64,000 bases of DNA. It comes from a phage. The stretch is taken from the sequence record PV874203.1. One strand, written 5' to 3'. The position numbers and the translations under genes are program-made. Of the stretch, positions 13,330 to 61,631 are shown in pieces. The first letter of the stretch is position 1. Every line of letters starts with the position of its first letter. Under the pieces are notes generated by a model. That model ran no database searches. It had not been told where the DNA came from and worked only from the letters and a program-made list of their open reading frames with translations.

Positions 13330-13348
13330 GACCTAAGTCCTGCCTTCT

Positions 13349-13357: not shown

Positions 13358-13396
13358 ATAGGGGGTAGGACATTTTTATTTATAAAAGGAGACGTT

Positions 13397-40592: not shown

Positions 40593-41789
40593 TTAGTAGT
40601 TTACAACAGTACCATCATTCAGGGTAAGACTATTAATCTGCAACACACGACCAAGCTGACGATCACTAATTGGTGCGTTCCAGCCAGAGCGGTAGAAGTT
40701 ACGACCACAGAAGAAAACAATTACGTTACTTGCTACGGTCGAACCATTTTCAGGATGCTTGATGTTAGCGATATAATAACCACGACGCAGATTACGACGG
40801 GTGATTGGGGTGATCTCTAACCCTTGTTCTTCAACTTGCATTGTTTCAGGAACAGGTTCCGAAGACTCTTCAGCAACTGGCTCAGCTGCCAATGCAAAGT
40901 TTTCGTCATCTGCCGATTCAGCAAACTCTTCTTCCACTTCTTCAACAGGCAGCTCGTAAGCAACGCGGTAGTCAGGATCAACACCAGAGAAACTCTTAAC
41001 AAACTCAACAATGTTGTGAGTGTAAGTTTCCAGAGTTGTTCCAGTCAGGCCCGGAGCTGTATTAACTTCCAGAACCCAAGCGTTAGTACCTTTGCTAATC
41101 AGGTCAACAGCACCGAAGTTCAAACCCAGAGCGGATACAGCTTTGTGAGCTTGAATCAGAACTTGATCAGGAGGGGCTTCAGTGAAGGAGTTAGAATAAA
41201 CCCAACCAGTGTGATGGTTGCGAACATCTTCACGATAATTTTCCAGTTCACGATAACCGTTACGACGAATCTTCTTCTGAACGTAAGTGATGACACCTTC
41301 GAACACATGAACACGCCATTCACGACGTGGGCCTTGGATTCCTTTGGTGTACAGAGGAGCATCCGCAACACCTTCTCGAGTAAGACGAACAGTAATACCT
41401 TCCCCAGAGTGACCAGTTAAGGTTGCACGTTCATAAACAATTTCATTCCGGTTCCAGTTCAGAGCTAACTCACGATCAGTGGTGTATTCAACAGTCTTGA
41501 CTTCAGCTAAACTCAGTGCGTTAAATGCTGCAACTTTATTAGCTGCTCGGTTCAGAGCTTCAACGGTATTCAGTACAGTTGCACCACCAAAGAAAGAAGC
41601 ATCATAACGACGGTTGCCATAGTTTACAACAATATCACCAGCACGAGAACGATAACGAGAACCCTCTGATACCAGAGACATTACATTAGCATTTAAGCGA
41701 AGCTCCTGAATCTTAGTGTTAATTGCAGAAGTAAGTTCACGAACTGAATCAGAAGGGCCATAAGGAAGAACACGGATACGAGTAGTCAT
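40593..41789 (-). CDS. ATP-grasp family ligase (RimK / glutathione-synthetase-like) with acidic C-terminal region
   Basis: GAVDLISKGTNAWVLEVNTAPGL matches the ATP-grasp C-terminal motif (vLEvNt.PG). Confidence 0.65.
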   Translation of the reverse strand: MTTRIRVLPYGPSDSVRELTSAINTKIQELRLNANVMSLVSEGSRYRSRAGDIVVNYGNRRYDASFFGGATVLNTVEALNRAANKVAAFNALSLAEVKTVEYTTDRELALNWNRNEIVYERATLTGHSGEGITVRLTREGVADAPLYTKGIQGPRREWRVHVFEGVITYVQKKIRRNGYRELENYREDVRNHHTGWVYSNSFTEAPPDQVLIQAHKAVSALGLNFGAVDLISKGTNAWVLEVNTAPGLTGTTLETYTHNIVEFVKSFSGVDPDYRVAYELPVEEVEEEFAESADDENFALAAEPVAEESSEPVPETMQVEEQGLEITPITRRNLRRGYYIANIKHPENGSTVASNVIVFFCGRNFYRSGWNAPISDRQLGRVLQINSLTLNDGTVVNY

Positions 41790-41791
41790 TG

Positions 41792-42016
41792 TTAGATACC
41801 TTTAAGTTTAAGAATTTCGTTACGAGTTTTTTGAATCTGAGCTTCAATTTCGAAGTAGTCGTTGAACGCGTCGTTCTCTACTTCATCGGATGGTGCATCA
41901 ATTAGACCGAAAGCGAACGGATACAGCTTTCGCTGCTCCGTTACTAATTCGATATGAACTCCTATGTAATACTGTAGGAGAGTGATCTTCGGTTTCTTAG
42001 GAACCAGATTTGACAT
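41792..42016 (-). CDS. hypothetical small protein
   Basis: 74-aa ORF between the ATP-grasp and GATase genes. Confidence 0.4.
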   Translation of the reverse strand: MSNLVPKKPKITLLQYYIGVHIELVTEQRKLYPFAFGLIDAPSDEVENDAFNDYFEIEAQIQKTRNEILKLKGI

Positions 42017-42230
42017 GAGGTTCTACCTTAATGCCTTTGATTTTTACATAATCAGCAAGTACGTTATTGATCACCGTTGGGAAAGGAACCTCAACCTGTG
42101 TCTCAAGTACTTGACCAATACCAGCTTGCATCCACTTCTGGATTGCACGAAGGTTGTCACATCCTGTGCTCGTCATCGGGATACGTCGAGTAGTTACAAC
42201 GTTATCCAACATCATTTTTCTGATTTCCAT
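41997..42230 (-). CDS. hypothetical small protein
   Basis: 77-aa ORF directly downstream of the GATase gene. Confidence 0.4.
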   Translation of the reverse strand: MEIRKMMLDNVVTTRRIPMTSTGCDNLRAIQKWMQAGIGQVLETQVEVPFPTVINNVLADYVKIKGIKVEPHVKSGS

Positions 42231-42234
42231 AAAC

Positions 42235-44265
42235 TTAACCTCTATTCAATGAACATTTAGGAGAATTACAATAAACTTGATTCATAGAACCAAGCGTACA
42301 ACTTTCAGCATCGCGCCACGGAATCTGCTTAAAACACTCTGAACAGTAGCCGAGGGTTGACCACATTGCTTTGGTGAAGTCAGTGCTTCGGTTTCCGTCG
42401 AAGCTGACAACAGTTTTGCGGAGAGCTGTTCGTGATTCAGGAAACACACCTGCTTTCTCAGCAGGTTCCTCCTTTTTTGGCTTAGTTGAGATTGCAAAAA
42501 TACTGTTGCTACGTTTCTCAACATAAGCATCAACAACGTCCTCCAGAGTGATGCCTGTCTGTTTCGCTGAGGAAGGTAATACAGTCATACGACCGATCAT
42601 ATCTTCAGTTACACGTAAAGCAAATTCAGGACGACGGGTGTTTGTTGTATCTGTTGCTCTAATCCAGACATAACCGTCTTTGATCGTAGCATTAGATACT
42701 TTCTTCTTTACATCTACAGCGCAGACTTTACAGATATCTTCACCACGAAGACGACTAAGTTCTTCATCGAACTCATTCTCTGTTTTAACTTCACCACAGA
42801 TTTCACAAACACCAATAGGAGTTTCCTCCTCTTCTTCATCTTTAGGTTTAGTCAAACCTTCCAGACATTCAGGATGCCAGTAGCACTGATATGCGAAGGC
42901 TGCTTTAGGTGCATCCTTCCAATCAATGTGTTTGTCACAACCACCACAATCACCATGAGAGTGTGCTTCCCAGAACTTACGAGTGATAGTAACGCCATTC
43001 TTATTGACGAAACTATCATTCATGTCAAAAGGGATATCATCATCAAAGTCAGCAGTAGTAGACTCAGGCTCCTTTTTCTCCAGAGATGGGTCAACAAAAC
43101 GACCTGCTGTGATCACTAAACGAACCATAGCATTAACTTCGGAGATACAGGATACTGTCCCACGGTAAACGATTTTAGGGTCTTTCAGTGCGTCCTGATA
43201 AGCCTTAATGTCTACGTTATGAACATCACCTTCGATATACTCTTGAGACTTCTCATCGTAGATATAACCGATCATCTTACCACGAGAAGGAACAGCACCA
43301 GCTGTTGCATAAGGAACAAACTCATGTGGTGTGATTTCCACAGTCATGTCGCGGCGAATGTCAATGTTTCGATCGCTTGCGATTTTGTTTTGACTTACCA
43401 CTGCGTTTCTTCGACGAACGTCTGCCGCTGTCACTCCCGGCTTCGTGTCGTAAGGATTGCTTGTACTGCTTTTTGAGGAACTTTGATAGTTGCTTTGGCT
43501 GTAGTTGTTCGAGTAGTAATTGCCCCAACGATTGATTACCGTAAAAACCGGAAGCTCGTGGGCGACCTCTTCAACTAGAGTCATGCTGTTGTTTGACATA
43601 TCAAAGATATATTCTGTACCAACTTTACATTCAAAGTGCTCATCAATTCGGTTTTTGTGAGACTTAGAACGCTTCAGAATCCACATCAACATGTCTTCTT
43701 CAGAAGCACCAAACCAATCTCTGTTACAACGTGCAAGATGGAAAGGGCGCTCTTCATTACGGATGATATGAAGGCGGTTATCAGAAGCATCATGCCAGAT
43801 CAGTGTGAAAGCACCGTCCAACTTTTGGATAGTCTCTGCTGCACCAATAGTGTTAATAGAGTGGCAGATGTTCTCACTATCCACCTCGAAGTTTTTACTG
43901 TCAGGTAACAGGTCTTGGTCCATCAAGGTTCCGTTATGAACCAGAGTGATATTACCATGTTGGAAAGGATGGGCGTTCTTGGCGTTAACTGCACCTTTCG
44001 TTGCATGACGGCTGTGACCAACAATCCATGAAGGCGCTACAGTGTAAGCTGTTTCACCAGTGGTGTGCTTCTTGTACTCATCTTGAAGGATGAATGCGAA
44101 AGAAGGAAGGGCTTCTTTGTAAGTGAAGACCTCCTTAGTGCTCTTACGCTGACCAAAGATACCAGAGGAATGTTGCCCTCGGAATACCCCAGCATAAAAG
44201 AGTTGGTTAAATACGTCTAAATCAGTGCTTGACAGATTACCGCCAGCTAATACGATGCCACAAAT
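42235..44265 (-). CDS. class II (Ntn) glutamine amidotransferase domain protein with Cys-rich zinc-ribbon C-terminal region; probable non-AUG (AUU) start
   Basis: Frame is open upstream of the track start (TTG at 43926) and reads (I)CGIVLAGG...FRGQHSSGIFG..., matching the N-terminal Cys nucleophile and RGQ motif of GlmS/PurF/AsnB-type GATases. AGGTGG SD sits 8 nt before an ATT codon preceding Cys. C-terminal half has several CxxC pairs. Confidence 0.6.
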   Translation of the reverse strand: MCGIVLAGGNLSSTDLDVFNQLFYAGVFRGQHSSGIFGQRKSTKEVFTYKEALPSFAFILQDEYKKHTTGETAYTVAPSWIVGHSRHATKGAVNAKNAHPFQHGNITLVHNGTLMDQDLLPDSKNFEVDSENICHSINTIGAAETIQKLDGAFTLIWHDASDNRLHIIRNEERPFHLARCNRDWFGASEEDMLMWILKRSKSHKNRIDEHFECKVGTEYIFDMSNNSMTLVEEVAHELPVFTVINRWGNYYSNNYSQSNYQSSSKSSTSNPYDTKPGVTAADVRRRNAVVSQNKIASDRNIDIRRDMTVEITPHEFVPYATAGAVPSRGKMIGYIYDEKSQEYIEGDVHNVDIKAYQDALKDPKIVYRGTVSCISEVNAMVRLVITAGRFVDPSLEKKEPESTTADFDDDIPFDMNDSFVNKNGVTITRKFWEAHSHGDCGGCDKHIDWKDAPKAAFAYQCYWHPECLEGLTKPKDEEEEETPIGVCEICGEVKTENEFDEELSRLRGEDICKVCAVDVKKKVSNATIKDGYVWIRATDTTNTRRPEFALRVTEDMIGRMTVLPSSAKQTGITLEDVVDAYVEKRSNSIFAISTKPKKEEPAEKAGVFPESRTALRKTVVSFDGNRSTDFTKAMWSTLGYCSECFKQIPWRDAESCTLGSMNQVYCNSPKCSLNRG

Positions 44266-44344
44266 TTTCTAATCCACCTGAAGGGTAAACCCTTTCATCT
44301 AATTAACCTTTAAATTGTGCCCCTTTATCAGAGGCACCCATTGA

Positions 44345-45448
44345 TTACAGCGCTTGCTCTAACTGATTTTCCAGATGATCTGGAATGTACCCTGTGATAT
44401 TGCTATCACTGTGTCCTGACTCACGTAGCAAGTCAAAAATAGCACGGATACGTTGCTCTGGTGCAGATCGTACAGTAGATAAATCAGTTGTACGAAGCAT
44501 AACCAGAATCTCTTGGTACAAGTTGTTAGCGTTCCCTCGGACATATCCAAGGAATCCGTAGAAGTCTGACATATAACGTAAGTCAACAAGAACATCTCCG
44601 TTGGAGTTGGTTCGACGTAAACGAATACGACCAGACTGCTCTACTCCATGAGAACGGCAATACAAAACATCACGGGCCATACAATAGCCTGAATGCAAAT
44701 CCGACTCGTCCAGATTGTAATCCAGAGGAAGGTAAGGAAGCATCGGGGCAAATCGTACAGTATTTAAATGCTCAATAAACTGATCATTGCTCATCTCTGC
44801 GTTATCTAATGCCAGCTTCTTCAACATCAAGAAGCGGTTAACCAGATTGAGAAGTTGACCACGTTTCCACTTAGGCTCACTGATACGGAACTCAATCGAA
44901 CCGTATTGGGCAAGTGGCAGAAGGTTCAGAGATGTATATTTATCCCATGAACGAACCAGACGGTTGAAGAACTCTTCATCGTCGTAGTTAAATGCGTCAG
45001 AGGCATTCATTACCTGTGCTTGTACCACTGCGAAAGCAGGGCAGAAGTTGCTACGGTAACGATGGTAGCCTGAACACTTGAACAACATCTTTTCATAGAA
45101 GGTCCAAGCGAGAACGGTTTTCTTGAGGATATTACTATCAGCATCCCTCATATCCATATGAACGTGAGTAGAGCAACGCCAAGTCCCCTCGGCGTGCGAT
45201 TCAGCTACTGCTTCACTCAGGTTGTTGATAGCGTCTAACAACTCCTGTCCGTTGTAAGGTCGTGAACATACCATTTCACAACCATTACGCAGGGAACCAT
45301 CCTCTGTACAATCCCACATATCTGCTTCGATATGATCGGAACCTTCGAGTTCAAGTTCAATACCGACACCGCACTGAAGTGCAATTGAACTATGCGCCTC
45401 AGTTAAACGACCTTCTCGATATCCAAAAGTTTGCGCTACAGTTGTCAT
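44345..45448 (-). CDS. Amidoligase_2-type COOH-NH2 ligase (glutamine-synthetase-like fold)
   Basis: GVGIELELEG, TEDGSLRNGCEMV, STHVHMD and GSIEFR fit the conserved blocks of the amidoligase family. Confidence 0.6.
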   Translation of the reverse strand: MTTVAQTFGYREGRLTEAHSSIALQCGVGIELELEGSDHIEADMWDCTEDGSLRNGCEMVCSRPYNGQELLDAINNLSEAVAESHAEGTWRCSTHVHMDMRDADSNILKKTVLAWTFYEKMLFKCSGYHRYRSNFCPAFAVVQAQVMNASDAFNYDDEEFFNRLVRSWDKYTSLNLLPLAQYGSIEFRISEPKWKRGQLLNLVNRFLMLKKLALDNAEMSNDQFIEHLNTVRFAPMLPYLPLDYNLDESDLHSGYCMARDVLYCRSHGVEQSGRIRLRRTNSNGDVLVDLRYMSDFYGFLGYVRGNANNLYQEILVMLRTTDLSTVRSAPEQRIRAIFDLLRESGHSDSNITGYIPDHLENQLEQAL

Positions 45449-46062
45449 AACGAATCCACCAACGTAATATTGTAATTGCTAAGGTTTTCAGAAATGTGAT
45501 GAAAGTGTTCCAGAAGTCGCATCGGTTGCTGACCGTAAGAGTCACGAGGCGCTTCCAGATCTACTTGTCCTACCAGTGCACCTTTATAATGCACCTTACC
45601 ATCAGTAGGGTTGATGTAAATATAACGAGTGACCAATCCTTCGAATTCAGGATTGAACAGACTGTAAACCATCTCCCCGGAGATAGCACGACCAACACCC
45701 GGAGCATTTCGAATCTTGTTACCCATCAAACCCTTTGCTCTCTGACGAACAGGGTTAATATGAGTCCAGCTTACAGTGTTACCGTTATGGAACAGATAAC
45801 CAACATCAGGTGATTCAAGAATCAAGGTTGGGTCGAACACTGGAATACTTATCGTAGTGTTTCGAAGGTGCCCTTGCTCATTCTTGTACCACTGCTCTAC
45901 AACAAAGTACAGAGCCTGTTCTGCTTCGTGAGAGAAGTCATCGCTGCGGAAGTTACCGCTCTGCTCGACACCGATCACAAAACACGGAAGGTTGATATTA
46001 CCTGCTCGTTTAGCAATCCATGTACCATTATAGTAATGAGAAAAATCAGCTACTAAGCTCAC
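45445..46062 (-). CDS. hypothetical protein (cluster member)
   Basis: 205-aa ORF overlapping the amidoligase start by 4 nt. Confidence 0.45.
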   Translation of the reverse strand: MSLVADFSHYYNGTWIAKRAGNINLPCFVIGVEQSGNFRSDDFSHEAEQALYFVVEQWYKNEQGHLRNTTISIPVFDPTLILESPDVGYLFHNGNTVSWTHINPVRQRAKGLMGNKIRNAPGVGRAISGEMVYSLFNPEFEGLVTRYIYINPTDGKVHYKGALVGQVDLEAPRDSYGQQPMRLLEHFHHISENLSNYNITLVDSL

Positions 46063-46071
46063 GATAACCTC

Positions 46072-46878
46072 TTATGCTACCTGAAGGAGTTTGATCTGCT
46101 GGTCCGCTTCTTTAACGTTGTTGCCGTTAATGATTTCATGAAGCTTCTCAATCGGAAGGCGAGAGTGCAATGCCATCAGAGTGGACATATCACACTGCTG
46201 AACAACTTTGTCAACCTGATCATAAACAAACTTACGATTTTCACGATCACTAATCCAGAAGTTAGACAGTGAACGATATTCAATACCATAATCTTTATAA
46301 CGGATTGCAGACGCTTTACCGTAGAGTTCTTTACGGCGAGTATCTTTATCCATAATAACTGCTGGAAGGGACAGGAAGTAGTCACACAGCACACCCAACA
46401 TCATCTGAGTTTGCAGGGTGATATCCAAAGCACCAACTACGCCAAGATGTACGTGACCGCCGGCAGTACGAAGTCCCTTATTCTGAGAAGTCGGGGATGG
46501 ATTCTTCTGACCAGTGAAAGCGTTGAAATCAGGAGTACACCCGAAGATGAACGCTGATTCATTGAAAGTCTTCATCTCTTCTTCAGTGAAGATGTGAGAG
46601 CTAACACCCGGAGCTGCTTCCATGTCCAGTTTGTTCAGGACATTGTTGGTGAGATCGATACCACGTTGCATGTTATCGTTAAACGCTTCAAAACCGCTCT
46701 GTGGGTCGATATCAAACTCAGCCAGTACGTTGTCCTCTTGAAGACGAACATCCTTAGCCAGAGTGATCTTATCGTCCTTAGAACAGCCTAACAGACCAGC
46801 CACAGAGGTGATAATACCATTGCTGGTACGAACGAACATTTCAGGGTCAGAGCCAATAAGGAAAGCGCGCTTAGTCAT
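46072..46878 (-). CDS. hypothetical protein (possible second ligase-like enzyme)
   Basis: 268 aa; N-terminal LIGSDPEMFV loosely resembles the G.E.E.F start of carboxylate-amine ligases; weak. Confidence 0.4.
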   Translation of the reverse strand: MTKRAFLIGSDPEMFVRTSNGIITSVAGLLGCSKDDKITLAKDVRLQEDNVLAEFDIDPQSGFEAFNDNMQRGIDLTNNVLNKLDMEAAPGVSSHIFTEEEMKTFNESAFIFGCTPDFNAFTGQKNPSPTSQNKGLRTAGGHVHLGVVGALDITLQTQMMLGVLCDYFLSLPAVIMDKDTRRKELYGKASAIRYKDYGIEYRSLSNFWISDRENRKFVYDQVDKVVQQCDMSTLMALHSRLPIEKLHEIINGNNVKEADQQIKLLQVA

Positions 46879-47842
46879 TGTAATACTCCACTAATTCAGA
46901 AAAGAGAGATGAGATTGTGTTACCAACTTCTTCAGTAGTAAGGCCAGAGCTTGGGCCAGTACGCTGAATTAGTCGGGCTGTAAAGTTTTGTACTGTAATG
47001 TTTTCCAACTTATTGTCTATTGCTTCACGTTTGTGACCATGACAGTTGGACCAGAGTTGTAACCACTCTGACATTGTTTGGTACTCGTCCGGGTCTTGAT
47101 CTTTAGCTTGAGCAAAAGCAGTCAGAGCCTCTAGGTCGTGGTTTCGAACATAACCATTTTGGTTTCTACCTTCACCAAACATACCTTGCACCCACACCTG
47201 ATCTGTATACTCATCAGAGTCTACAACCAAAGGTAAGAATGCTGCTGCTGACATGTCACCATTAATGGCAACAGATGTACTTTCACTTGAGCTGTTAGCC
47301 CTTCCTCGTTGAGACCACCCACCGAAGAAGTCACGACCTAACCCAGCTAACACTAGAGCGATGCCGATGCGTTTACGCTTCAGCCACTCTTCCCTGTCTT
47401 CAATTCCTTCTGCTAGGAAATCCATTCCACGATACTGCCCTTCCAGAATACTACGGAAAAGCATAAGTCCTGTGAAGATCTGATCTGCTGGATGCTCACG
47501 GAGGTTGACAGCAACACTATTCGCTGAAGTGATTGTAAATACGTCACGATAGCAAGACATGGAGTTCATAATGTCTGCTGTTTCAACCAAGTTCTTTTCA
47601 ATATCAGATGCAACATGACCATGAAAAGAGTGAGTCCAGTAATTCAACATCTCCAATTGCAAGTTGATGTCACGGTTGAAGCGTCTATAACGTCCTTCTT
47701 CCGTGATAACTTCACCATTAATGTCACTTACGCATTGGCCTTGCATGTAGTTGTGGATACCGAAGCATCCACGACCTAAGAACTTCTGTTCCCCTAAATC
47801 TTGTTGAAGATTCAGAGGTACGATCGTTGTGGAGATTGACAT
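46871..47842 (-). CDS. hypothetical protein (cluster member)
   Basis: 323-aa ORF overlapping downstream gene by 8 nt. Confidence 0.45.
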   Translation of the reverse strand: MSISTTIVPLNLQQDLGEQKFLGRGCFGIHNYMQGQCVSDINGEVITEEGRYRRFNRDINLQLEMLNYWTHSFHGHVASDIEKNLVETADIMNSMSCYRDVFTITSANSVAVNLREHPADQIFTGLMLFRSILEGQYRGMDFLAEGIEDREEWLKRKRIGIALVLAGLGRDFFGGWSQRGRANSSSESTSVAINGDMSAAAFLPLVVDSDEYTDQVWVQGMFGEGRNQNGYVRNHDLEALTAFAQAKDQDPDEYQTMSEWLQLWSNCHGHKREAIDNKLENITVQNFTARLIQRTGPSSGLTTEEVGNTISSLFSELVEYYND

Positions 47843-47852
47843 AACTAACCTT

Positions 47853-49049
47853 TTATTTTCCTAAAAATAATCCGCTCATAACACCATCCCATTCAGAGGA
47901 TGGAATCACTGAATACACCGAACTTTGGTCCAGAGTTCCACTACTAAATCGCTGAACAATGTTATAAATGTTGAACAGATCTTTAGTCTCAGCACGAATG
48001 CCGTAGATTAGGCTGTTAGCTGTTCTTTCATCTTTAGACACTCGACGGGCAAAGTTAATCAGAAGGTTATCACATTTCAGGATTTCTGATTCACTCTCTA
48101 CTAGATCAGGGTGCATCACCGGCAAGAACATCGAGTTATTAACTCGTAATTCTGCTGTTTCATCATTCTCATAATGAATCCACTTAAAGTCTTCATCACG
48201 GAAATGACCACACCCCTCTCTGTACGACTGCTGACGCCAAGGAACTTGAAATGCTTCAGCATACTTATCAGCCATACCAACTGTAAATAACGACGCCGGG
48301 AAGATACAAGCATCCCAATCATTACCAACCAGAGTTGCTTTCGTTTCCCCTAAGAGGTTAGTGTAAGTGCTAACCATTCGTGAGTAAACATAAGCCTGAA
48401 GGATTGTCCAGCCCTCAACCAACCATTTATGGAGGAAGGTTTCAACTTGACTCTCTTCATCTTCACAATAGAAGGTTCGGTCTAGCATTAAATAGAACAG
48501 ACAACGATCAGCAGGAACGTTCTCAGTTGCTACGCCCATAAAACCTTTCTCGTGCCAGCGTAAACAGGAGGGACGATCTTTGTCCACAAATGCTTCCATA
48601 GCTTCCAGTACAGCACGAGGTGTGGTTCGATGCTCAGGGTTTTTACTATTCCAACGATCAATGTTATTCTTGGGAGGTGTGTCTTCATCTTCATATGAAC
48701 ACCAACCTAAAGCTGCGGATACAGGTTTTTCATCACGCCAACGTATAAAACCTAACATCTTCATGTGAGTTCCGGAGTTCCAGATATGCTTGATTTTACA
48801 CATATCCATCTCTCGGCTTAACAGGAACTCTTCCCCATCAGCACTACGAACGTTAGCTTCTTCATGCCACACTCGAACGTGCATATTCCACCCATGAGTC
48901 GCCTCATACATGTTAGGGTCAAAGTATTCGTCTTCGTAATCATCTTCATCAACGCCACCGTTATAGTTGCGAAGCTGAAGGAACCCATAACAAGGAGGGT
49001 GGACCGTTAAAACATTACCTTCAGTATCTTCTAATGTTACTGGAAACAT
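47853..49049 (-). CDS. hypothetical protein (cluster member)
   Basis: 398-aa acidic ORF with several Cys/His. Confidence 0.45.
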   Translation of the reverse strand: MFPVTLEDTEGNVLTVHPPCYGFLQLRNYNGGVDEDDYEDEYFDPNMYEATHGWNMHVRVWHEEANVRSADGEEFLLSREMDMCKIKHIWNSGTHMKMLGFIRWRDEKPVSAALGWCSYEDEDTPPKNNIDRWNSKNPEHRTTPRAVLEAMEAFVDKDRPSCLRWHEKGFMGVATENVPADRCLFYLMLDRTFYCEDEESQVETFLHKWLVEGWTILQAYVYSRMVSTYTNLLGETKATLVGNDWDACIFPASLFTVGMADKYAEAFQVPWRQQSYREGCGHFRDEDFKWIHYENDETAELRVNNSMFLPVMHPDLVESESEILKCDNLLINFARRVSKDERTANSLIYGIRAETKDLFNIYNIVQRFSSGTLDQSSVYSVIPSSEWDGVMSGLFLGK

Positions 49050-49060
49050 TATACCAACCT

Positions 49061-50733: not shown

Positions 50734-50976
50734 CTATGGAGTTAAGATAATTTCAGCCTTACTAAACTTCTCACCAACTTCAAGAGTATCAGCAACAGGA
50801 CGGGGCACACCTGTACCCAAACAAACAGCCCTTCGATACCCTCCAGTCACAGGCATCATCAAATAGATGACCTGATTATCATCTTCTTTTAAAGTAAAGA
50901 TATCAGCGATCGATAGATCTTTAACAAAGAGTTTCTTTTCTTCTTCATGATGAACTTTGATATGTATTGTGCTCAT
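50734..50976 (-). CDS. small early protein, paralogous family member
   Basis: Shares the L..L..GD(V/I)F ... NL.TG pattern with eight other small ORFs. Confidence 0.45.
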   Translation of the reverse strand: MSTIHIKVHHEEEKKLFVKDLSIADIFTLKEDDNQVIYLMMPVTGGYRRAVCLGTGVPRPVADTLEVGEKFSKAEIILTP

Positions 50977-50978
50977 AC

Positions 50979-51224
50979 CTACTCCTGAACAACTGACATA
51001 CGAATCACTTCAACAGGTGCATCACTTTTCATAACACCCAGTACGCCAGTAAGAAGATTAACGGTCGTAATCCAACCTTCTTCGACAGAGATTTTGTTGG
51101 ATACATTATTAACACGGATGTAATACTGAGGGGATGCTGTTCCTCTCTGAACTACGAAAGGGTTTCCGGGAATAATTGTAGCCAGTGAAACAGTGTTATC
51201 TTTAATCTTTGGGATAATCTTCAT
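50979..51224 (-). CDS. small early protein, paralogous family member (divergent)
   Basis: 81 aa, similar length and pattern (…NLLTGVLG…). Confidence 0.4.
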   Translation of the reverse strand: MKIIPKIKDNTVSLATIIPGNPFVVQRGTASPQYYIRVNNVSNKISVEEGWITTVNLLTGVLGVMKSDAPVEVIRMSVVQE

Positions 51225-51232
51225 ATTGATTC

Positions 51233-51556
51233 CTATTTAAGTTTTAGGCTAATATTAAGGTGCATACATGCCCTGTTCTGTACAGCAGCATAACTTCTAC
51301 CGAGCATGTCAGCCATTCTCTGAATAGACATGAACCCAGCATTACGGATAAGGAACTGGTCTTCTTCTTTAGACCACTTGACTCGGATTACAGCTCTAGA
51401 AATACCGAACTTAGTGCAAGCTGTATTAACTGCATTCTCCGTTACATTCATAATCTGAGCAACTTCTTGAACCGAGTACTCTTTGATTAGTCTCCGAAGA
51501 TTTTCAATCTGCATCGGAGTCCATATAGTTCTTCGAGCTTTCATTTTACCACCCAT
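51233..51556 (-). CDS. helix-turn-helix DNA-binding protein
   Basis: IENLRRLIKEYSVQEVAQIMNVTENAVNTACTKFGI looks like an HTH. Confidence 0.45.
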   Translation of the reverse strand: MGGKMKARRTIWTPMQIENLRRLIKEYSVQEVAQIMNVTENAVNTACTKFGISRAVIRVKWSKEEDQFLIRNAGFMSIQRMADMLGRSYAAVQNRACMHLNISLKLK

Positions 51557-51767
51557 GTCGACTTTTAACTAACACACCATCAATTATCAGATAATGTAAA
51601 TGTCTTATCATATCTGAAGACAGATCTCCATGAGCGCTATTCCACTGAAGGAAGTTCATATCCTTCCAATCTGTGTAGTGCTTTTTGGCTTCTTCCTCTA
51701 TCTGACTAAGAGTTACCCTTCTGAAAGGATATGGACTATACTTAATAAGTGTTTCACATTTTGTCAT
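51546..51767 (-). CDS. hypothetical protein
   Basis: 73-aa ORF. Confidence 0.4.
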   Translation of the reverse strand: MTKCETLIKYSPYPFRRVTLSQIEEEAKKHYTDWKDMNFLQWNSAHGDLSSDMIRHLHYLIIDGVLVKSRHGW

Positions 51768-51811
51768 ATATCCTCCAATTAAATGTTTATGTAAGACTTG
51801 CTTAGATAAAG

Positions 51812-51846
51812 ATTCAATAAAATAGGGGGAGGGGACGAATCCTCCC
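51812..51846 (-). terminator. hairpin terminator (minus strand)
   Basis: GGGAGG-loop-CCTCCC hairpin; minus strand has T-rich tract after it. Confidence 0.4.
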
Positions 51847-52057
51847 TTATCCTATTAATTAATATTGCATGTAAGATCTAACAATCGGTTGCCTTTGTAG
51901 GAATAAGCGTTATGCCAATCCAGCACTAAACTCCCGCCCCCTTAGTGGGCTGGGTTTATAAAGGGTAACGCCCTTATGGGCTAGTTACATGAATGTTAGT
52001 TTGATAGGGGATCTGAAGTCCTATCTCAAAGGACTCTCGTAAGAATCCTTCACGATA

Positions 52058-52315
52058 TTACTTAAAGATGAAATGTATAACTGCATCATATGCTTTAGAC
52101 AGAAGCCAACCTATCGGATAACAGACTCCTGCCAGTATTGAGATGGGCCATAACATAATTAAGATCACAACCATCATCTCATCAGGTTCAGAGCTGGTAG
52201 ACCCTGTTGTAATGACCCCTTTTAGTAGACCTTTCTTGTATAGCAGTTTCAGCACTAAAACAGAAAGGAATACTCCAATAAAGTAAACTGAGATAAAAAT
52301 ATCAAGTAAACCCAT
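52058..52315 (-). CDS. small membrane protein
   Basis: 85 aa, two hydrophobic helices. Confidence 0.45.
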   Translation of the reverse strand: MGLLDIFISVYFIGVFLSVLVLKLLYKKGLLKGVITTGSTSSEPDEMMVVILIMLWPISILAGVCYPIGWLLSKAYDAVIHFIFK

Positions 52316-52326
52316 TTAATCACCTA

Positions 52327-52458
52327 TTACTTATTCAACTTTCGTCTGCTATCTCGCCAAGCCAACCAAGTGTAGGTTTTCAGCTCTTCAAAGTCTTCTG
52401 GAGAGAATAGATATTCTTTGAAGGTATTTCCAAACCACTTTAAAAATTCTTCAGTCAT
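52327..52458 (-). CDS. hypothetical small protein
   Basis: 43 aa, not in track; AAGAGG RBS. Confidence 0.3.
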   Translation of the reverse strand: MTEEFLKWFGNTFKEYLFSPEDFEELKTYTWLAWRDSRRKLNK

Positions 52459-52466
52459 AAAACCTC

Positions 52467-52640
52467 TTAACAAGACTGGTCACATGGCTGATCACCACAT
52501 GTTTTACAAATCACTGGTGAATAACTACAGGAAGGATATACTGACACACCGTCAAACGTCTCACACCCACAGTCAGGGCATGTACCATTGGATTCCATGT
52601 CATAATCATCATCCACTTCACCACCACCATAACAGCTCAT
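52467..52640 (-). CDS. small Cys-rich (zinc-binding?) protein
   Basis: 57 aa, not in track: MSCYGGGEVDDDYDMESNGTCPDCGCETFDGVSVYPSCSYSPVICKTCGDQPCDQSC; strong RBS AAGGAG. Confidence 0.45.
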   Translation of the reverse strand: MSCYGGGEVDDDYDMESNGTCPDCGCETFDGVSVYPSCSYSPVICKTCGDQPCDQSC

Positions 52641-52649
52641 ATGAACTCC

Positions 52650-52871
52650 TTAGTAAACTAAACCTATAGCCTTTGCATCAGGCTGAGGGACTACTTTTGC
52701 ATTAGGGCGATAACCATCCACTGAACCATTCCAAAGGTTGACACAGGTGATATACCCATCGTTCAAGTAGTCTGTTTTAATCCAGAAGTGTTTATCGTGA
52801 CCAAAGATACTTCCTTTTGGCAGTGTGGACAATTCAACAGTTTTAAGGGATTGTTTAGAATCTAATTTCAT
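52650..52871 (-). CDS. small early protein, paralogous family member
   Basis: LKTVELSTLPKGSIFGHDKHFWIKTDYLNDGYITCVNLWNGSVDG. Confidence 0.45.
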   Translation of the reverse strand: MKLDSKQSLKTVELSTLPKGSIFGHDKHFWIKTDYLNDGYITCVNLWNGSVDGYRPNAKVVPQPDAKAIGLVY

Positions 52872-52880
52872 ATAAGTTCC

Positions 52881-53078
52881 TTAATACACCAAGCCATGTA
52901 AGAGAAACACTCTCTTAGTTAACTCTGCTTTAGCTCTGTAATAAGCCTTAGAACCTAACAGGCGGCGTTTAACAAAGAACTTAATGTCATTGCTAACATC
53001 TTGTATTAAACGCTCCTGTACAGCTTCTGAGGAGCTATTAATTGAATCAATTAACACCTTTGTAGATGTATAATTCAT
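52881..53078 (-). CDS. hypothetical protein
   Basis: 65-aa ORF. Confidence 0.35.
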   Translation of the reverse strand: MNYTSTKVLIDSINSSSEAVQERLIQDVSNDIKFFVKRRLLGSKAYYRAKAELTKRVFLLHGLVY

Positions 53079-53079
53079 A

Positions 53080-53379
53080 TCACCACTCCTTACCGGTTGT
53101 TGTTACAGAGCCACCACACCACAACGCTGTATCAATCACAACATTATCTGGCGTAGACTTCTCTTCGTTGATAGAAGGGTTAGCATTGGAGCAGGTTGCT
53201 CCGTTCCAGCGCATATCGATTTCACCAGAAGGAACCTTCTCACCTTTATGCCAGCGAGAAACACAAACACCTTCCACTGCTACTGCACACCATCCATCAG
53301 GACGGCTCTGTACGCAGCCTGTAAGGGCCACACAGACAAGGAAGATACAGATTAAGGATATTACACCACCCCAACTCAT
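53080..53379 (-). CDS. lipoprotein
   Basis: Signal peptide with lipobox LTGC; Cys-rich mature region. Confidence 0.55.
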   Translation of the reverse strand: MSWGGVISLICIFLVCVALTGCVQSRPDGWCAVAVEGVCVSRWHKGEKVPSGEIDMRWNGATCSNANPSINEEKSTPDNVVIDTALWCGGSVTTTGKEW

Positions 53380-53398
53380 AACTATCTCCTACGTTGAT

Positions 53399-53474
53399 TG
53401 GTGCACCCTACAGGACTCGAACCTGTAACCAACGACTTAGAAGGTCGCTGCTCTGTCCATTGAGCTAAGGGTGC
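53399..53474 (-). tRNA. tRNA-Arg (anticodon UCU), CCA encoded
   Basis: Minus-strand cloverleaf: 7-bp acceptor stem GCACCCU/AGGGUGC, D-arm GCUC/GAGC, anticodon loop CUUCUAA, T-arm ACAGG-UUCGAGU-CCUGU, 3' ACCA. Confidence 0.85.
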
Positions 53475-53483
53475 TATATTTAT

Positions 53484-53792
53484 TTATAAGGAGAAAGACT
53501 TCTTACAATCCTTCTCTTCAAAAGTGTAGTAGCCTGTTGTATCAGGGAAGTAGGCATACTTTGTTTCTTTGCCATCAATAGCCATGACACGATTACCAGA
53601 AGTTGTTTCTACAAACAGAAGCCCATCTCTTACCATACCATGAGATTCTTTGATACCAGTTAAGCTATGCTCTTTAAGAGTGCATTGCTGAACACTCTGA
53701 TACTTAACTCCAATCTCTGCACTATTAACAGAGATGATACCAATGGTTGTCATTAGTAGTAAGGTTGAGATGATAAAATGCTTTTGTTTCAC
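53484..53792 (-). CDS. secreted/periplasmic protein
   Basis: N-terminal signal peptide MKQKHFIISTLLLMTTIGIISVNSA. Confidence 0.5.
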   Translation of the reverse strand: MKQKHFIISTLLLMTTIGIISVNSAEIGVKYQSVQQCTLKEHSLTGIKESHGMVRDGLLFVETTSGNRVMAIDGKETKYAYFPDTTGYYTFEEKDCKKSFSL

Positions 53793-53810
53793 ATTAACCT
53801 CTGGATTTAT

Positions 53811-54020
53811 TTAACTGAAGATACGCAAGGCCACATCGTGATAGATATGACCGGGGACTTTGTGCTGTTCTATTTTCAAACAGCGTTTACAGACACGAGA
53901 TACACGAGATTCTTTTCTCTCGACCGGAGTGTCTTTAGCGTGAGTAATATGTAAGTTTTCAGTGATCACCCACTCATGTTTACATCCAGAATCTTCGGGC
54001 TTTTTCTTACGAAAGAACAT
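53811..54020 (-). CDS. zinc-ribbon protein (paralogue pair A)
   Basis: CKHEW...CKRCL motif; similar to next gene. Confidence 0.4.
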   Translation of the reverse strand: MFFRKKKPEDSGCKHEWVITENLHITHAKDTPVERKESRVSRVCKRCLKIEQHKVPGHIYHDVALRIFS

Positions 54021-54029
54021 AACACCCCC

Positions 54030-54191
54030 TTAGATTACATCACGATGACTAACATCACCACACACCTTACACTGAATAACGTAACGTGTGCCCTTGTCAT
54101 TATTCCCATCTGAATCTGTATAGACCAGAGGGCGAGTATTAATAATCTTCCAATCATGACAATGAAAGACACGCTTTAGCCACTTGAACAT
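54030..54191 (-). CDS. zinc-ribbon protein (paralogue pair B)
   Basis: CHDWKI...CKVCG; start trimmed to an internal Met to remove overlap. Confidence 0.4.
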   Translation of the reverse strand: MFKWLKRVFHCHDWKIINTRPLVYTDSDGNNDKGTRYVIQCKVCGDVSHRDVI

Positions 54192-54198
54192 ATTAACC

Positions 54199-54450
54199 TC
54201 AAGCACAAGCAGGGAGAGTGATGATTTTATGCTTACCATCAAACTCTCCAAATAAACCTAAGAATGTAGGACTGTAAGTGCCAGTACAAACAAACTCATC
54301 AAACAGTGCGTTATAGCTAGGCTTAATCTTCCAAGCCCATACATAACCCATCTTGTCAATTGCAATGTAACGAGTGTTCAGAGGAACAGTCATCATCACA
54401 CCATCAACTTCAATCACTTTAGTTATTGGTGCAGCTTGGAAGTTTTTCAT
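54199..54450 (-). CDS. hypothetical protein
   Basis: 83-aa ORF. Confidence 0.4.
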   Translation of the reverse strand: MKNFQAAPITKVIEVDGVMMTVPLNTRYIAIDKMGYVWAWKIKPSYNALFDEFVCTGTYSPTFLGLFGEFDGKHKIITLPACA

Positions 54451-54677
54451 TACATTTCCTCTAACTTAAGAGTTGCTTTATATTCTTTAACCGGAGCGTC
54501 TTCAGGGAAAGAAAGTCTTTGAGAGGGTTGGGGTAATCGTACAGAAAACCCGCCACCAATCTTCATGTAGAAAGATTCTTGACTGGCAAGTTCTGTGTTG
54601 AATGTGAAAATAGAACCAATGCTCAAGTCTCGGAAAGTCTTTTGCTTTGGTTTAGTCGAGTCTAAAACGATATTCAT
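54450..54677 (-). CDS. small early protein, paralogous family member
   Basis: FRDLSIGSIFTFNTELASQESFYMKIGGG. Confidence 0.45.
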   Translation of the reverse strand: MNIVLDSTKPKQKTFRDLSIGSIFTFNTELASQESFYMKIGGGFSVRLPQPSQRLSFPEDAPVKEYKATLKLEEM

Positions 54678-54842
54678 ACTTTACCTTTGATAAAAATGTC
54701 ATTACCACAGACACAGCATGAACGAACAACAGTAGCGCCACGCTGAACGATACGAACCTCTTCTTTAACCAGATTAACACGAGCACCACAGCAAGGAGAG
54801 TTAACATAAGAGTAACCAGCTTGCGTATTCTTGATTGTTTGC

Positions 54843-55199
54843 TTAGACATTTGATTCGAGATCTCTTAGTTGTTCAGCCAATTGTTCGCACTCATTGATG
54901 CAGAACTCTTCTGTTCTTGGAACCCCATTAGGGTTGAACCGTGTCTTATCACACGCATGGGCACAATCAAACCCGATTGTATTTAAACCACCCATCTCTT
55001 CAAGAGTGTCTTGCCATGTTACACCACCGTGAACTCCAACATACCAAACAACCGCTTCCTCTCCGTTATATCCGGTGAAGTTTTTATGCTTTAAGCTGTC
55101 TGGTAGCTCTACATATCCACAAAGATGGGAGTCGTTCATGTGAATAATCACAGCACGAAGCCCTGATTTAGTTACCCAACCTTTAACCATGCGTCTCAT
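54843..55199 (-). CDS. hypothetical protein
   Basis: Start set at internal ATG with AGAGGTG RBS; the track N-terminus would read through a terminator hairpin. Confidence 0.45.
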   Translation of the reverse strand: MRRMVKGWVTKSGLRAVIIHMNDSHLCGYVELPDSLKHKNFTGYNGEEAVVWYVGVHGGVTWQDTLEEMGGLNTIGFDCAHACDKTRFNPNGVPRTEEFCINECEQLAEQLRDLESNV

Positions 55200-55239
55200 A
55201 TAAGCACCTCTTGTTAGTTTAAGTAAGAGTTGTCCCTTA

Positions 55240-55273
55240 ATTAAAACAACAAAGGCCACCCGATTGGGCAGCC
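55240..55273 (-). terminator. rho-independent terminator (minus strand)
   Basis: Minus strand GGCUGCCC-AAUC-GGGUGGCC followed by UUUGUUGUUUU; near-identical hairpin at 29765..29784. Confidence 0.55.
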
Positions 55274-55736
55274 TTTTATCTATTAACTGTTGTATGTCCA
55301 ATTACCTTGCTTGTTACGGATAGCTGACATTGCATGAAGCCAGAAGCCTTCCAGTTTCAGAGCACCGTTAGCTACTGCATCCATACGTTCAGGGCGGTTC
55401 ATAAGTTTGGTTGACACTTTCATACCTATATCTCTTTGTTAGTGGAGGCATTATTGCCAGTTGATATAAGGGATAGCCCTAGTCAGGAGACTAATTCTGA
55501 CCGCGTACTCATTGCCGACCTTCTCTGCCTAAGAGTTCAGGTTCTAGAGCTATCTCTTATTCCAACTGGTGAAGACTCCCTACCCCTAGGAAGTCTCCTG
55601 AATCCCAAACCGATACGTACCCCTACATATCAGAAAGTCTTTCGAAAATTAACAGGTTTTAGTCTAACACCGGATGTTCGAGCAAGCTCTCCCTAGCGGT
55701 GTGGCATATGCCTGAGTTAATAAGTTAATGAGGAAC

Positions 55737-55775
55737 ACCCTCACATAGCCCTCTGATAGACACAAGGGCTATAAG
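55737..55775 (-). repeat. conserved hairpin element, copy 2
   Basis: CTCACATAGCCCT-CTGATAGACACA-AGGGCTATAAG; same stem and flank as 49771..49800. Confidence 0.45.
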
Positions 55776-55781
55776 TCGGTG

Positions 55782-56000
55782 TTACTTTTGAGTCAAACAC
55801 AGATCAGGACGGGGCATAACAGTGGTTGATAGACCAAAGACTTCAACATAACCAGTGCCCAGATTGGCAGCCTTACGTAAACCGTCAGGGGTTTTATCTT
55901 CTAGCATCAGCCAGAAACGTTTATCGTAAGAGAAAACATCACCACCCTTAACGTCTTCTGCATTTGCATATTTAGGATAATCAACTACTTTAATTTCCAT
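55782..56000 (-). CDS. small early protein, paralogous family member
   Basis: AEDVKGGDVFSYDKRFWLMLEDKTPDGLRKAANLGTG. Confidence 0.45.
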   Translation of the reverse strand: MEIKVVDYPKYANAEDVKGGDVFSYDKRFWLMLEDKTPDGLRKAANLGTGYVEVFGLSTTVMPRPDLCLTQK

Positions 56001-56010
56001 TTACTTACCT

Positions 56011-56229
56011 TTACTGATAGATGGAGAGGTGGATAAGTTTATTCACATGAGCGAAGTTAGGTAGGATTTGCATCTCATTGTTGAAGATATTAAAACAACG
56101 AACCCCACCCTCTACAGCATAAGCAGATTTCTGAAACAGACTACCTCCCCACACAAATACATCATGTGTTTCAAGAGATCGTAACTGAACAGCCTCGTCA
56201 ACAACCTTCTTTTCAATGTTCATACTCAC
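56011..56229 (-). CDS. small early protein, paralogous family member (divergent)
   Basis: 72 aa, similar length and spacing in the tandem array. Confidence 0.4.
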   Translation of the reverse strand: MSMNIEKKVVDEAVQLRSLETHDVFVWGGSLFQKSAYAVEGGVRCFNIFNNEMQILPNFAHVNKLIHLSIYQ

Positions 56230-56480
56230 CCTTGATTAGTAATCACTACATCGTGAAACATGATAACACGGGTTGTAGAGTGTATCTTAATAACTTGCTT
56301 ACTTCTCAGATTAAGAACAACGCAACCTCCATCAGAAGGCTTAGTCTCTTCTATCTGAGAAGTAAATAACTGAACAACCATGTAGAAATCTGCACGGGTA
56401 TCCCTGATTTGGAATACATCTCCAAGTTTAAGATCACTGACATAAAGAGTTGGTTCATTTACCTTCAAATTAATCTTCAT
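56226..56480 (-). CDS. small early protein, paralogous family member
   Basis: VSDLKLGDVFQIRDTRADFYMVVQ...VVLNLRS. Confidence 0.45.
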   Translation of the reverse strand: MKINLKVNEPTLYVSDLKLGDVFQIRDTRADFYMVVQLFTSQIEETKPSDGGCVVLNLRSKQVIKIHSTTRVIMFHDVVITNQG

Positions 56481-56706
56481 CCTTAGCCCCTATGTTAGTT
56501 ATGTGGAGATCACTACGTACTTGGCAGACTTCATCCCGTTTAAAAGGCATGAGCTTTCCAGTTACCACATCAACACAGTTTACATAGTTATCTGCGTATA
56601 GTGTGTCGGTTCTAATATAAAGAGAGTCTTTACGCTCAAATAGAACCCCCGGCTTCATATTATTTAATCGAAGCATTGTACGATCGGATTTAATATTAAC
56701 TTTCAC
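56470..56706 (-). CDS. small early protein, paralogous family member
   Basis: LNNMKPGVLFERKDSLYIRTDTLYADNYVNCVDVVTG. Confidence 0.45.
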   Translation of the reverse strand: MKVNIKSDRTMLRLNNMKPGVLFERKDSLYIRTDTLYADNYVNCVDVVTGKLMPFKRDEVCQVRSDLHITNIGAKDED

Positions 56707-56708
56707 TG

Positions 56709-56966
56709 TTAATCCGCCTTATTCGTGAGTCGAGCGTTAACTTTCTTAACAACTTCATGAGTGAAACCATCAGAAATCACACCAGTTGAAAGGTTAATAT
56801 ATTTTCTCTGATCTCCTGATCTGTTATAAGCACTTGAGGACATATAATAATCACTCAGGTTCAGAGGGAACTGGAACACATCACCTGATTCTAAATCCCC
56901 AAGAGTCAAAACCTTTGGGGCGTTGTTCATATCAATTATCACTGTTAATCTCCTGCTGCTTAGCAA
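56709..56966 (-). CDS. small early protein, paralogous family member
   Basis: LGDLESGDVFQFPLNLSDYYMSS...YINLSTG. Confidence 0.45.
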   Translation of the reverse strand: MLSSRRLTVIIDMNNAPKVLTLGDLESGDVFQFPLNLSDYYMSSSAYNRSGDQRKYINLSTGVISDGFTHEVVKKVNARLTNKAD

Positions 56967-57862: not shown

Positions 57863-57892
57863 GCATAAAAAAGCCCCAGCCGTAGCCGGGGC
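57863..57892 (-). terminator. rho-independent terminator (minus strand)
   Basis: Minus strand GCCCCGGC-UACG-GCUGGGGC followed by UUUUUUAU. Confidence 0.6.
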
Positions 57893-61065: not shown

Positions 61066-61288
61066 TAAATCTGTCAGCGTGCTTTCTCACGCTACGCAAC
61101 TGTTAGCCGTTGTTACGCTTTTCACTTAAGCGGTGATTTGCTTCAGTGATGCTCATTATGGACCATGATGTTTTTGCTGTCAACCGCTTTTTTAATCTTT
61201 TTCGTCGTTCCCGCTATTGGGAGGATATATCAACCCGCTTTATTGGGTTGAAGATTAAGCGATGAGGCTTAACCCATGATTCATATTG

Positions 61289-61298
61289 TTAAAGAGCG
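61289..61298. repeat. TTAAAGAGCG repeat, copy 2
   Basis: ATTGTTAAAGAGCG; plus-strand context gives TTGTTA-N17-TATAGT. Confidence 0.45.
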
Positions 61299-61562
61299 TT
61301 TAGCCTTTTATAGTGTCTGCTAATCACTGCATCATTAAAGGCTTACTTATTCATTAACGGGGCGCCTAATCCCGAACTACCCGCTGCACTATGTGCCACC
61401 TTTCCCGCGATACGTTGATTTAGGAACTAGTTAACGTTGTTTTGTTAACTTGTGGTTAGTATGAACTACCTTAACCACGTTTGCAACCCTTTTTTATCAT
61501 CTTCTTTTATTCTTTTCCCTTATCTCGCTTGAATCTATGCGAAAGGGCAAGATGATAAGTTT

Positions 61563-61573
61563 TTAAAGAGCGG
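61563..61573. repeat. TTAAAGAGCGG repeat, copy 3
   Basis: TTTTTAAAGAGCGGG; lies just downstream of the predicted minus-strand sigma70 promoter. Confidence 0.45.
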
Positions 61574-61602
61574 GATGCTTTAAGTCATCGCTGACTATGC
61601 TC

Positions 61603-61631
61603 ACTATATATCAGGCTATTTTCGGTGTCAA
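61603..61631 (-). promoter_or_regulatory. sigma70-type promoter (minus strand), candidate early promoter
   Basis: Minus strand reads TTGACA-17 nt-TATAGT (plus tgtcaa 61626..61631, actata 61603..61608). Confidence 0.55.

Follow-up and report, generated by a model that had tools for sequence, protein, structure and literature searches.

Nine paralogous small proteins in the early region of a Kuravirus phage belong to a widespread family with a predicted SH3-like fold

Here we examine nine small genes lying between positions 50,734 and 56,966 of a 64,000-nucleotide stretch of phage DNA (sequence record PV874203.1, referred to throughout as the window) and describe the protein family to which they belong. 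An earlier reading of this DNA from its letters alone (the original prediction) had singled out nine open reading frames (ORFs) sharing a recurring motif, and all nine are present at the coordinates given, on the minus strand, which carries every gene of the interval. At the nucleotide (nt) level the interval matches approximately 100 podophage genomes of E. coli, Shigella and Salmonella at 85-95% identity, with phage NJ01 as the top match; NJ01 and phiEco32 are both assigned to the Gordonclarkvirinae, genus Kuravirus, and the window is likewise a phiEco32/NJ01-like Kuravirus. The interval is syntenic with phiEco32 genes 95-116, with the family copies confined to the gp95-115 stretch, a region described as early, σ70-dependent and 'likely host takeover' (PMC8948821, PMC9965538), and this correspondence with the early σ70-transcribed class of phiEco32 supports the early-region location originally proposed. 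Two near-consensus σ70-type promoter matches sit in a long non-coding spacer upstream of the early operon (61155..61631), a placement that agrees with the early promoters described for phiEco32 and SU10 (Table 1). Weak σ70-like matches also occur at 57555-57527 and 57289-57262.

Table 1. Family members and associated features in the window (aa, amino acids; leave-one-out E values are explained in the text)
Positions	Strand	Feature	Relatives and remarks	Leave-one-out E
56709..56942	-	Family member, orthogroup OG3, 77 aa	First gene of five-gene tandem block	9e-6
56470..56706	-	Family member, 78 aa	phiEco32 gp115 ortholog, 97% aa identity; PHROG 16423	9.6e-5
56226..56480	-	Family member, 84 aa	phiEco32 gp114 ortholog, 53% aa identity overall	1.2e-7
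56011..56229	-	Family member, orthogroup OG7, 70-72 aa	PHROG 33163	8.3e-3
55782..56000	-	Family member, 72 aa	phiEco32 gp113 ortholog, 90% identity; PHROG 6570; ends tandem block	1.7e-6
54450..54677	-	Family member, orthogroup OG10, 75 aa	phiEco32 gp109 slot; PHROG 10911	6e-3
52650..52871	-	Family member, 73 aa	phiEco32 gp104 ortholog, 90% identity; PHROG 6570	1.8e-10
50979..51224	-	Family member, 81 aa	phiEco32 gp96 ortholog, 68% identity; PHROG 7431; universal in Kuravirus	1.8e-6
50734..50976	-	Family member, 80 aa	phiEco32 gp95 ortholog, 51% identity; PHROG 12612; universal in Kuravirus	1.2e-4
56690..56714	-	25-nt translation-initiation-region repeat (ribosome-binding site, GTG, first codons)	Second copy at 56926-56950, 84% identity	
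61631-61603	-	σ70-type promoter match, near-consensus	TTGACA-17-TATAGT; consensus match only	
61183-61155	-	σ70-type promoter match, near-consensus	TTGACA-17-CATAAT; consensus match only	
57873-57892	-	Terminator-like hairpin, strong, intrinsic type	8-bp stem with 7 G-C pairs, then T6 run	
40338-40586	-	gp79 homolog	phmmer E 2.5e-54; homolog of factor displacing σ70 and stabilising the phage σ (gp36)	

Several details of gene arrangement can be refined. Tandem organisation had been recognised correctly, but the direct tandem comprises five genes (55782 to 56942) rather than four, and a second adjacent pair is formed by 50734/50979. Two of the proposed start positions also shift. The last gene most likely begins at the GTG at 56942 and not at the TTG at 56966, because AGGAG lies 7 nt upstream of the former, homologs begin MIIDMNN, and a 25-nt repeat spanning the start region is common to this gene and its adjacent paralog; the gene at 56011-56229 probably begins at the ATG at 56223, yielding a 70-aa product that matches its homologs. 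The 25-nt repeat is the only DNA-level similarity between paralogs. The gene at 56226..56480 is a mosaic relative to phiEco32 gp114, sharing 85% nt identity over its N-terminal ~40 codons and having no DNA match over its C-terminal half, which suggests a recombination breakpoint inside a family gene.

The nine ORFs are true paralogs of a single family. When a profile hidden Markov model (HMM) was built from eight members and searched against the left-out member together with the 377 other ORFs of the window and 1000 shuffles of the left-out member, the ninth ranked first in all nine cases, with E values from 1.8e-10 to 8.3e-3, the weakest being those for 54450-54677 (E=0.006) and 56011-56229 (E=0.008). 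Each protein matches its own PHROG profile at E 1e-12 to 3e-54, and weaker cross-matches to the profiles of other members link all nine, always co-linear from residue 1 and over the whole ~70-85 aa protein. A broad family HMM applied to the 64-kb window recovers exactly nine members, the next ORF scoring E=0.055. The shared motif is recovered in the family consensus, MKI..K...K...L.DLk.GDVF.....fYMk.....dGy..aVNL.TG.......V.p...A.lt, and the alignments resolve it into an N-terminal MKI.V strand, L..GDVF with an invariant Phe, (Y/F/W)(M/I)K, VNL.TG and a C-terminal A.L.I strand. The NL.TG element is present as proposed, although it is degenerate in some members (54450-54677, 56226-56480) and lies mid-protein, at about residues 45-50, instead of toward the C-terminus.

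Structural modelling, which had been suggested as a check for a common fold, returned small all-β barrels for both members that were modelled. For 52650-52871, the most central member of the family, AlphaFold2 with a 28-sequence family alignment produced a five-stranded SH3-like barrel (predicted local distance difference test score, pLDDT, 81.6; predicted template modelling score, pTM, 0.69), and for 54450-54677, one of the two weakest members, AlphaFold gave an all-β model with additional N- and C-terminal strands (pLDDT 83.4, pTM 0.70). Foldseek searches of the independently built models in BFVD retrieved other Kuravirus paralog classes at template modelling (TM) scores of 0.66-0.88, as well as short proteins from N4, from PaP3 and from phages infecting Klebsiella, Proteus, Erwinia, Vibrio, Yersinia, Serratia, Morganella and Providencia, with approximately 17 targets common to both queries. 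The models have the five-stranded, highly bent antiparallel barrel of ~60 residues that characterises SH3-like domains, and the predicted family fold is thus a small β-barrel of SH3-like (Tudor/KOW-like) type, to which further strands are added at both termini. The longest insertion in the β2-β3 loop is found in 56226..56480.

Selection was assessed from the ratio of nonsynonymous to synonymous substitution rates (dN/dS; Nei-Gojobori on clustered ORFs) across the early regions of the window and ten Gordonclarkvirinae phages (NJ01, phiEco32, LAMP, ECBP2, EP335, SU10, Paul, SU7, Ptacy1479 and MN05). Ten family orthogroups gave dN/dS of 0.06-0.29 (median 0.21), compared with ~0.07-0.38 for bona fide non-family early genes and >1 for spurious out-of-frame ORFs; orthologs are therefore under purifying selection and the nine ORFs are functional genes. 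Constraint is strongest in the N-terminal and C-terminal strands (0.12 each) and in the GDVF motif (0.16-0.19), and most relaxed in three inter-strand segments, the β2-β3 loop among them (0.37-0.39). Since no 5-codon segment exceeded 0.39 and none came near 1, gene-wide and regional positive selection is rejected at the available resolution, and the diversifying selection originally suggested for these genes is not supported. These results also settle whether the resemblance could be compositional or due to chance, or the ORFs not be genes at all. Pairwise BLAST among the nine sequences is mostly weak, with only three pairs at E<1e-3, which is what such a reading would expect; it is nevertheless refuted by the leave-one-out ranks, the co-linear PHROG cross-matches, the purifying dN/dS, the concordant confident structure models and the conserved ribosome-binding sites and start contexts, leaving it a negligible probability.

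Among the same eleven genomes the family shows extensive turnover. Copy number rises from three in LAMP (68.5 kb) and four in SU7, through six in ECBP2 and eight each in Paul and MN05, to nine each in the window, phiEco32 and SU10, ten each in NJ01 and Ptacy1479, and eleven in EP335. These 87 genes fall into 20 orthogroups (>=45% identity) with a mosaic pattern of presence and absence. Only three, those of gp104, gp96 and gp95, occur throughout Kuravirus and Nieuwekanaalvirus (the gp104 ortholog, 52650..52871, being found in all genomes of both genera examined), and the Suseptimavirus set is largely different. Copies always occupy a few fixed positions, namely the gp104 and gp109 slots, a block beside the gp99 regulator and, immediately downstream of the gp116 homolog, the tandem block. 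At the gp109 slot, 54450-54677 shares only 29% identity with phiEco32 gp109 although its neighbours on either side, the gp110 and gp108 homologs, are 98% and 96% identical, and the difference is, on this comparison, a cassette replacement. Compared with phiEco32, the window carries 56709-56942 and 56011-56229 as insertions; the former has orthologs in NJ01, SU10, ECBP2 and Ptacy1479 and none in phiEco32, and the latter, among these eleven genomes, occurs only in the window and NJ01.

Identity between paralogs of one genome is no more than 27-41%, and for several orthogroups the relatives outside Kuravirus are as close as the in-genome paralogs or closer; dS is high (0.6-1.3), which fits the exchange of old alleles. 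Repeated duplication and divergence, as first proposed, is thus upheld in so far as the genes are paralogs; recent tandem duplication is rejected, given this level of identity and a DNA-level repeat restricted to the 25-nt start region. The history these comparisons trace is one of ancient divergence combined with birth-and-death turnover and recombination, not of a recent burst.

Searches of larger databases extend the family well beyond Kuravirus. A word-indexed search of 5.8 billion proteins found only proteins of 68-82 aa, whereas an exhaustive HMMER search of 1.84 billion cluster representatives yielded 1672 at E<=1e-3, mostly free-standing, 66-86 aa in length and carrying the motif described above; a second word-indexed search, run with the distant profile, revealed neither fusions nor names. 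HMM building and phage database searching, the other checks put forward with the original prediction, returned both PHROG matches and a large set of relatives, with each of the nine copies recovered by the model of the other eight. Sixty distant members match the same set of 'unknown function' PHROGs, and the family spans at least ten of these (6570, 7431, 7832, 8365, 9955, 10911, 12612, 16423, 33163 and 34455). It includes phiEco32 gp95/96/97/98/104/109/113/114/115, N4 gp21 (54 bits against the family HMM, the sole match in the first 30 kb scanned, located beside accessory genes) and PaP3 ORF65 (26 bits, in the early region and a single copy in the whole genome). Nothing separates the window genes from this unnamed PHROG 6570/7431/... 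superfamily, of which they are members by direct sequence homology. In T4, T7 and T5, tblastn with the consensus at permissive E detected no member, and there are thus no functional data from these model phages to borrow.

Multiple copies recur elsewhere. Proteus phage 3H10_20 (Grimontviridae) carries two clear copies as tandem genes, while Vibrio phage 1.101.O has one gene. An SPβ-like metagenomic phage contig of ~100 kb (L016), which also codes for YorF, YorH, AAA_24 and DnaB, contains at least 11 members within 12 kb (2349-13931) in a long run of small genes, and a related contig (L017) has five (2529-6514), with a Lar restriction-alleviation gene (PF14354) among them, next to one distant member. 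In a further contig (L019), three members lie side by side and two of them are two-domain fusions, as are P0093, P0111 and P0114. Judged by homology, members occur in five or more unrelated phage lineages, and in at least two of these the family has expanded into multi-copy arrays. In cells, the family was found in one context only, a chromosomal Bacteroidota protein (P0085; L014 3583-5019 / L015 8001-9437) with SusC/SusD neighbours, in which a SprT-like metalloprotease domain is followed by five family repeats (16-22 bits each, pI 9.5-10). Matches in the giant proteins P0106, P0109, P0122 and P0139 were disregarded, either because they look like artefacts of repeats or low complexity or because each repeat scores too weakly.

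No curated family covers the nine genes, and the earlier statement that the family was not recognised was a fair one. None of the nine has a Pfam match even at E<=1, and searches of Pfam, NCBIfam and PDB sequences with the nine genes and the 60 distant members gave nothing above threshold, the best hit of a PDB profile search being an unrelated PAS protein at E=0.046. In the ~100 related genomes the genes are deposited as 'hypothetical protein' and sometimes under misleading names. For example, a 72-aa family member of NJ01 (8954-9172) is labelled 'putative two-domain glycosyltransferase', and a 77-aa member from EcoN5 (BFVD A0A7L4XW47) 'endolysin'; the gene at the gp116 position (58 aa in NJ01, at 9872-10048, and 98 aa in phiEco32) is labelled 'DNA helicase' in both phages. 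The paralogy of these genes is not mentioned in the phiEco32, SU10, YF01, 7-11 or BASEL phage literature that we examined. While small accessory early proteins and SH3-like barrels are both already familiar, what is new here is the unification of the family, the prediction of an SH3-like fold, the breadth of its distribution and the occurrence of a second large array in an unrelated phage along with smaller sets.

Comparison with known SH3-like folds (the ribosomal protein L2 C-terminal domain, EF-P/eIF5A domain I, KOW domains of Spt5/NusG, Tudor, the CarD/UvrD C-terminal domain and FeoA/DtxR SH3) reveals no detectable sequence relationship, and the family differs from them in its extra conserved N- and C-terminal strands and its standalone length of 70-85 aa. 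Judged from sequence it has neither the KOW glycine motif nor the Tudor aromatic cage, in which 4-5 residues bind methyl-Lys/Arg, its only two conserved aromatic positions being the Phe of GDVF and the Y/F/W of YMK. The KOW (PF00467) and EF-P N-terminal KOW-like (PF08207) profiles are not matched by the nine at E<=1, one of the 60 distant members touches EFP_N at a sub-threshold E=0.029, and no Pfam Tudor-family profile matches the nine or the distant members. Within this phage group the only small non-enzymatic protein with a known mechanism is gp79, an RNA polymerase (RNAP)-binding, σ-displacing factor of four-helix, all-α structure (PMC12276001). It resembles the family in size (82 aa) and in its origin, and its action on a host machine parallels the role proposed for the family; however, it is encoded in the middle region between gp78 and gp80, and as a candidate family member it is rejected, since it scores -1.7 bits against the family HMM and is all-α where the family models are all-β.

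Anti-defence and accessory islands (anti-CRISPR, anti-restriction-modification, anti-Thoeris) consist of small early phage proteins, usually from unrelated families brought together. The nine genes resemble such islands in encoding small, clustered single-domain proteins, in their mosaic presence and absence, in cassette replacement at fixed slots and, by synteny, in early expression. They differ in that one fold family supplies up to 11 copies, in their purifying dN/dS, and in that inhibitory activity is here a proposal.

As the most likely function we propose that the family is a set of small protein-binding early effectors serving host takeover or anti-defence, a reading to which we assign a probability of about 0.45. 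Transcription of the nine genes by the host's σ70 RNA polymerase would fall within the first minutes after infection; the scaffold would be held together by the conserved positions (MKI.V, L..GDVF, YMK, VNL.TG, V.P and A.L.I), while the β2-β3 loop and other inter-strand segments vary in sequence and length, such that each small paralog may bind a different protein of the host or its defences stoichiometrically. The repertoire itself would turn over through gene gain, loss and cassette replacement at the few fixed slots of the early operon. That the partners are proteins, and that they are host or defence factors, is what we infer. Protein targets are favoured because the standalone phage forms are near-neutral or acidic, because the scaffold is conserved and the loops relaxed, and because the repertoire turns over in the manner of accessory effector loci. 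The proteins look soluble, and the SU10 virion proteome contains none of them, which speaks against a structural role. The recurrence of multi-copy sets and two-domain fusions in other phages, and the Lar gene beside one distant member, are further points in favour.

Several points weigh against this proposal. The literature searches turned up no experimental data on any family member from any phage, and we found no functional studies of N4 gp21, of paralogous SH3-like early proteins or of Kuravirus in relation to defence systems. Early timing of the nine genes is predicted from synteny with phiEco32, and the hairpin at 57892-57873 separates the main early promoters from the family arrays, so that genes beyond it would be expressed by read-through or from an internal promoter. 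The two AlphaFold models were built on alignments pooling all paralog classes and are not mutually independent. Neither gene-wide nor regional positive selection is seen, which an arms-race effector might be expected to show. Finally, SH3-like barrels also bind nucleic acids, and the only non-phage fusion joins strongly basic repeats to a SprT-like protease.

These last observations lend some weight to an unlikely alternative, in which these small β-barrels bind nucleic acids, be it as RNA chaperones, as antitermination or transcription factors, or as binders of DNA ends or single-stranded DNA, each paralog tuning a different phage or host nucleic-acid step, as their fold neighbours and the SprT fusion might indicate. 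Window members, however, carry a net charge of only -2 to +2 (isoelectric point, pI, 5.2-9.2), and distant members have a median pI of 5.2, with 41% below pI 5; so little net charge speaks against nucleic-acid binding of a generic kind. At E<=1, Pfam gives neither a KOW nor any other nucleic-acid-binding signature, and 3 to 11 copies are hard to square with a core nucleic-acid function.

Free variation in copy number also bears on the improbable idea that the paralogs co-assemble, by way of the conserved β-strands at their ends, into homo- or hetero-oligomers such as dimers or Sm/Hfq-like rings, with a single function. The terminal strands are indeed the most constrained parts of the protein (dN/dS 0.12), the natural two-domain fusions (P0093, P0111, P0114 and the two L019 genes) would by Rosetta-stone reasoning imply that domains may pair, and the tandem genes are so tightly packed or overlapping that co-translation is probable. 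A fixed hetero-oligomer should nevertheless retain a fixed set of subunits, whereas orthogroup content and copy number range freely from three in LAMP to 11 in EP335 with only three orthogroups universal in Kuravirus, and N4 (in the first 30 kb) and PaP3 (in the whole genome) each have a single copy.

The neighbourhood of the N4 copy raises a further, improbable reading, that the family serves phage-phage competition or self-protection, either in superinfection exclusion or by neutralising toxic products of phages or prophages. N4 gp21 has a superinfection-exclusion gene as its neighbour, along with genes for a membrane protein and a lipoprotein, and the slots occupied by the family are accessory and rapidly exchanged. 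No signal peptide or transmembrane segment is visible in the nine sequences, which is compatible with exclusion at the level of the envelope but does not favour it. It is very improbable that the proteins are Tudor-like RNAP-binding modulators (cf. CarD, the Mfd RID and the UvrD C-terminal domain) that redirect host RNAP early and complement gp79 and gp36, as RNAP purified from infected cells carried only the latter two proteins.

The effector proposal can be pushed further, to a reading in which many unrelated phages use the SH3-like barrel, with its variable loops, as an evolvable general-purpose scaffold for binders, duplicating it repeatedly so that each copy neutralises a different host immune or housekeeping protein, and in which the 3-11 copies would explain the broad defence resistance of the Gordonclarkvirinae; in this sweeping form we consider it decidedly unlikely. 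That resistance, to restriction-modification and other defence systems, is at present unexplained (PMC11990801). If small early protein-binding effectors are indeed what these genes encode, the family would amount to a large effector class that had escaped recognition, uniform in structure and made up of ~1700 clusters at 50% identity, and would offer a candidate gene set for the question raised by the BASEL study, namely why phages of the Kuravirus group resist nearly all tested defence systems without a known inhibitor or DNA modification. Natural comparisons are at hand in the 3-copy and 11-copy genomes and in cassette replacements with near-identical flanks. Even with a mundane function, merging at least ten 'unknown' PHROGs into one fold family would improve phage annotation and correct misleading labels.

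The remaining observations concern genes neighbouring the family. A tRNA-Arg gene (TCT; 53399-53474, minus strand) lies in the early operon between a phage lipoprotein gene (53080-53379, PF24052) and a 102-aa ORF, a position conserved in phiEco32, LAMP, EP335 and others. Two small Cys-rich ORFs with CxxC-type pairs and no Pfam match adjoin family members on the minus strand, at 52467-52640 (57 aa) and 54674-54850 (58 aa), the second being the gp110 homolog, 98% identical to that of phiEco32; both are possibly zinc ribbons. Next to it, ~350 nt (54855-55206) do not match phiEco32 DNA in the equivalent interval (gp111 region), and the overlapping 152-aa ORF at 54843-55301 (minus strand, TTG start, no Pfam match) may be a strain-specific accessory gene. 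Outside the early region, a module of amidoligase, glutamine amidotransferase, COOH-NH2 ligase, ATP-grasp (RimK-like) enzyme and γ-glutamyl cyclotransferase genes is common to Kuravirus (window ~40600-49050), PaP3 (Bruynoghevirus; L020 31900-39600) and the Grimontviridae (L023, Proteus phage 3H10_20, 19600-28200), and its gene content points to a peptide- or metabolite-modification pathway.

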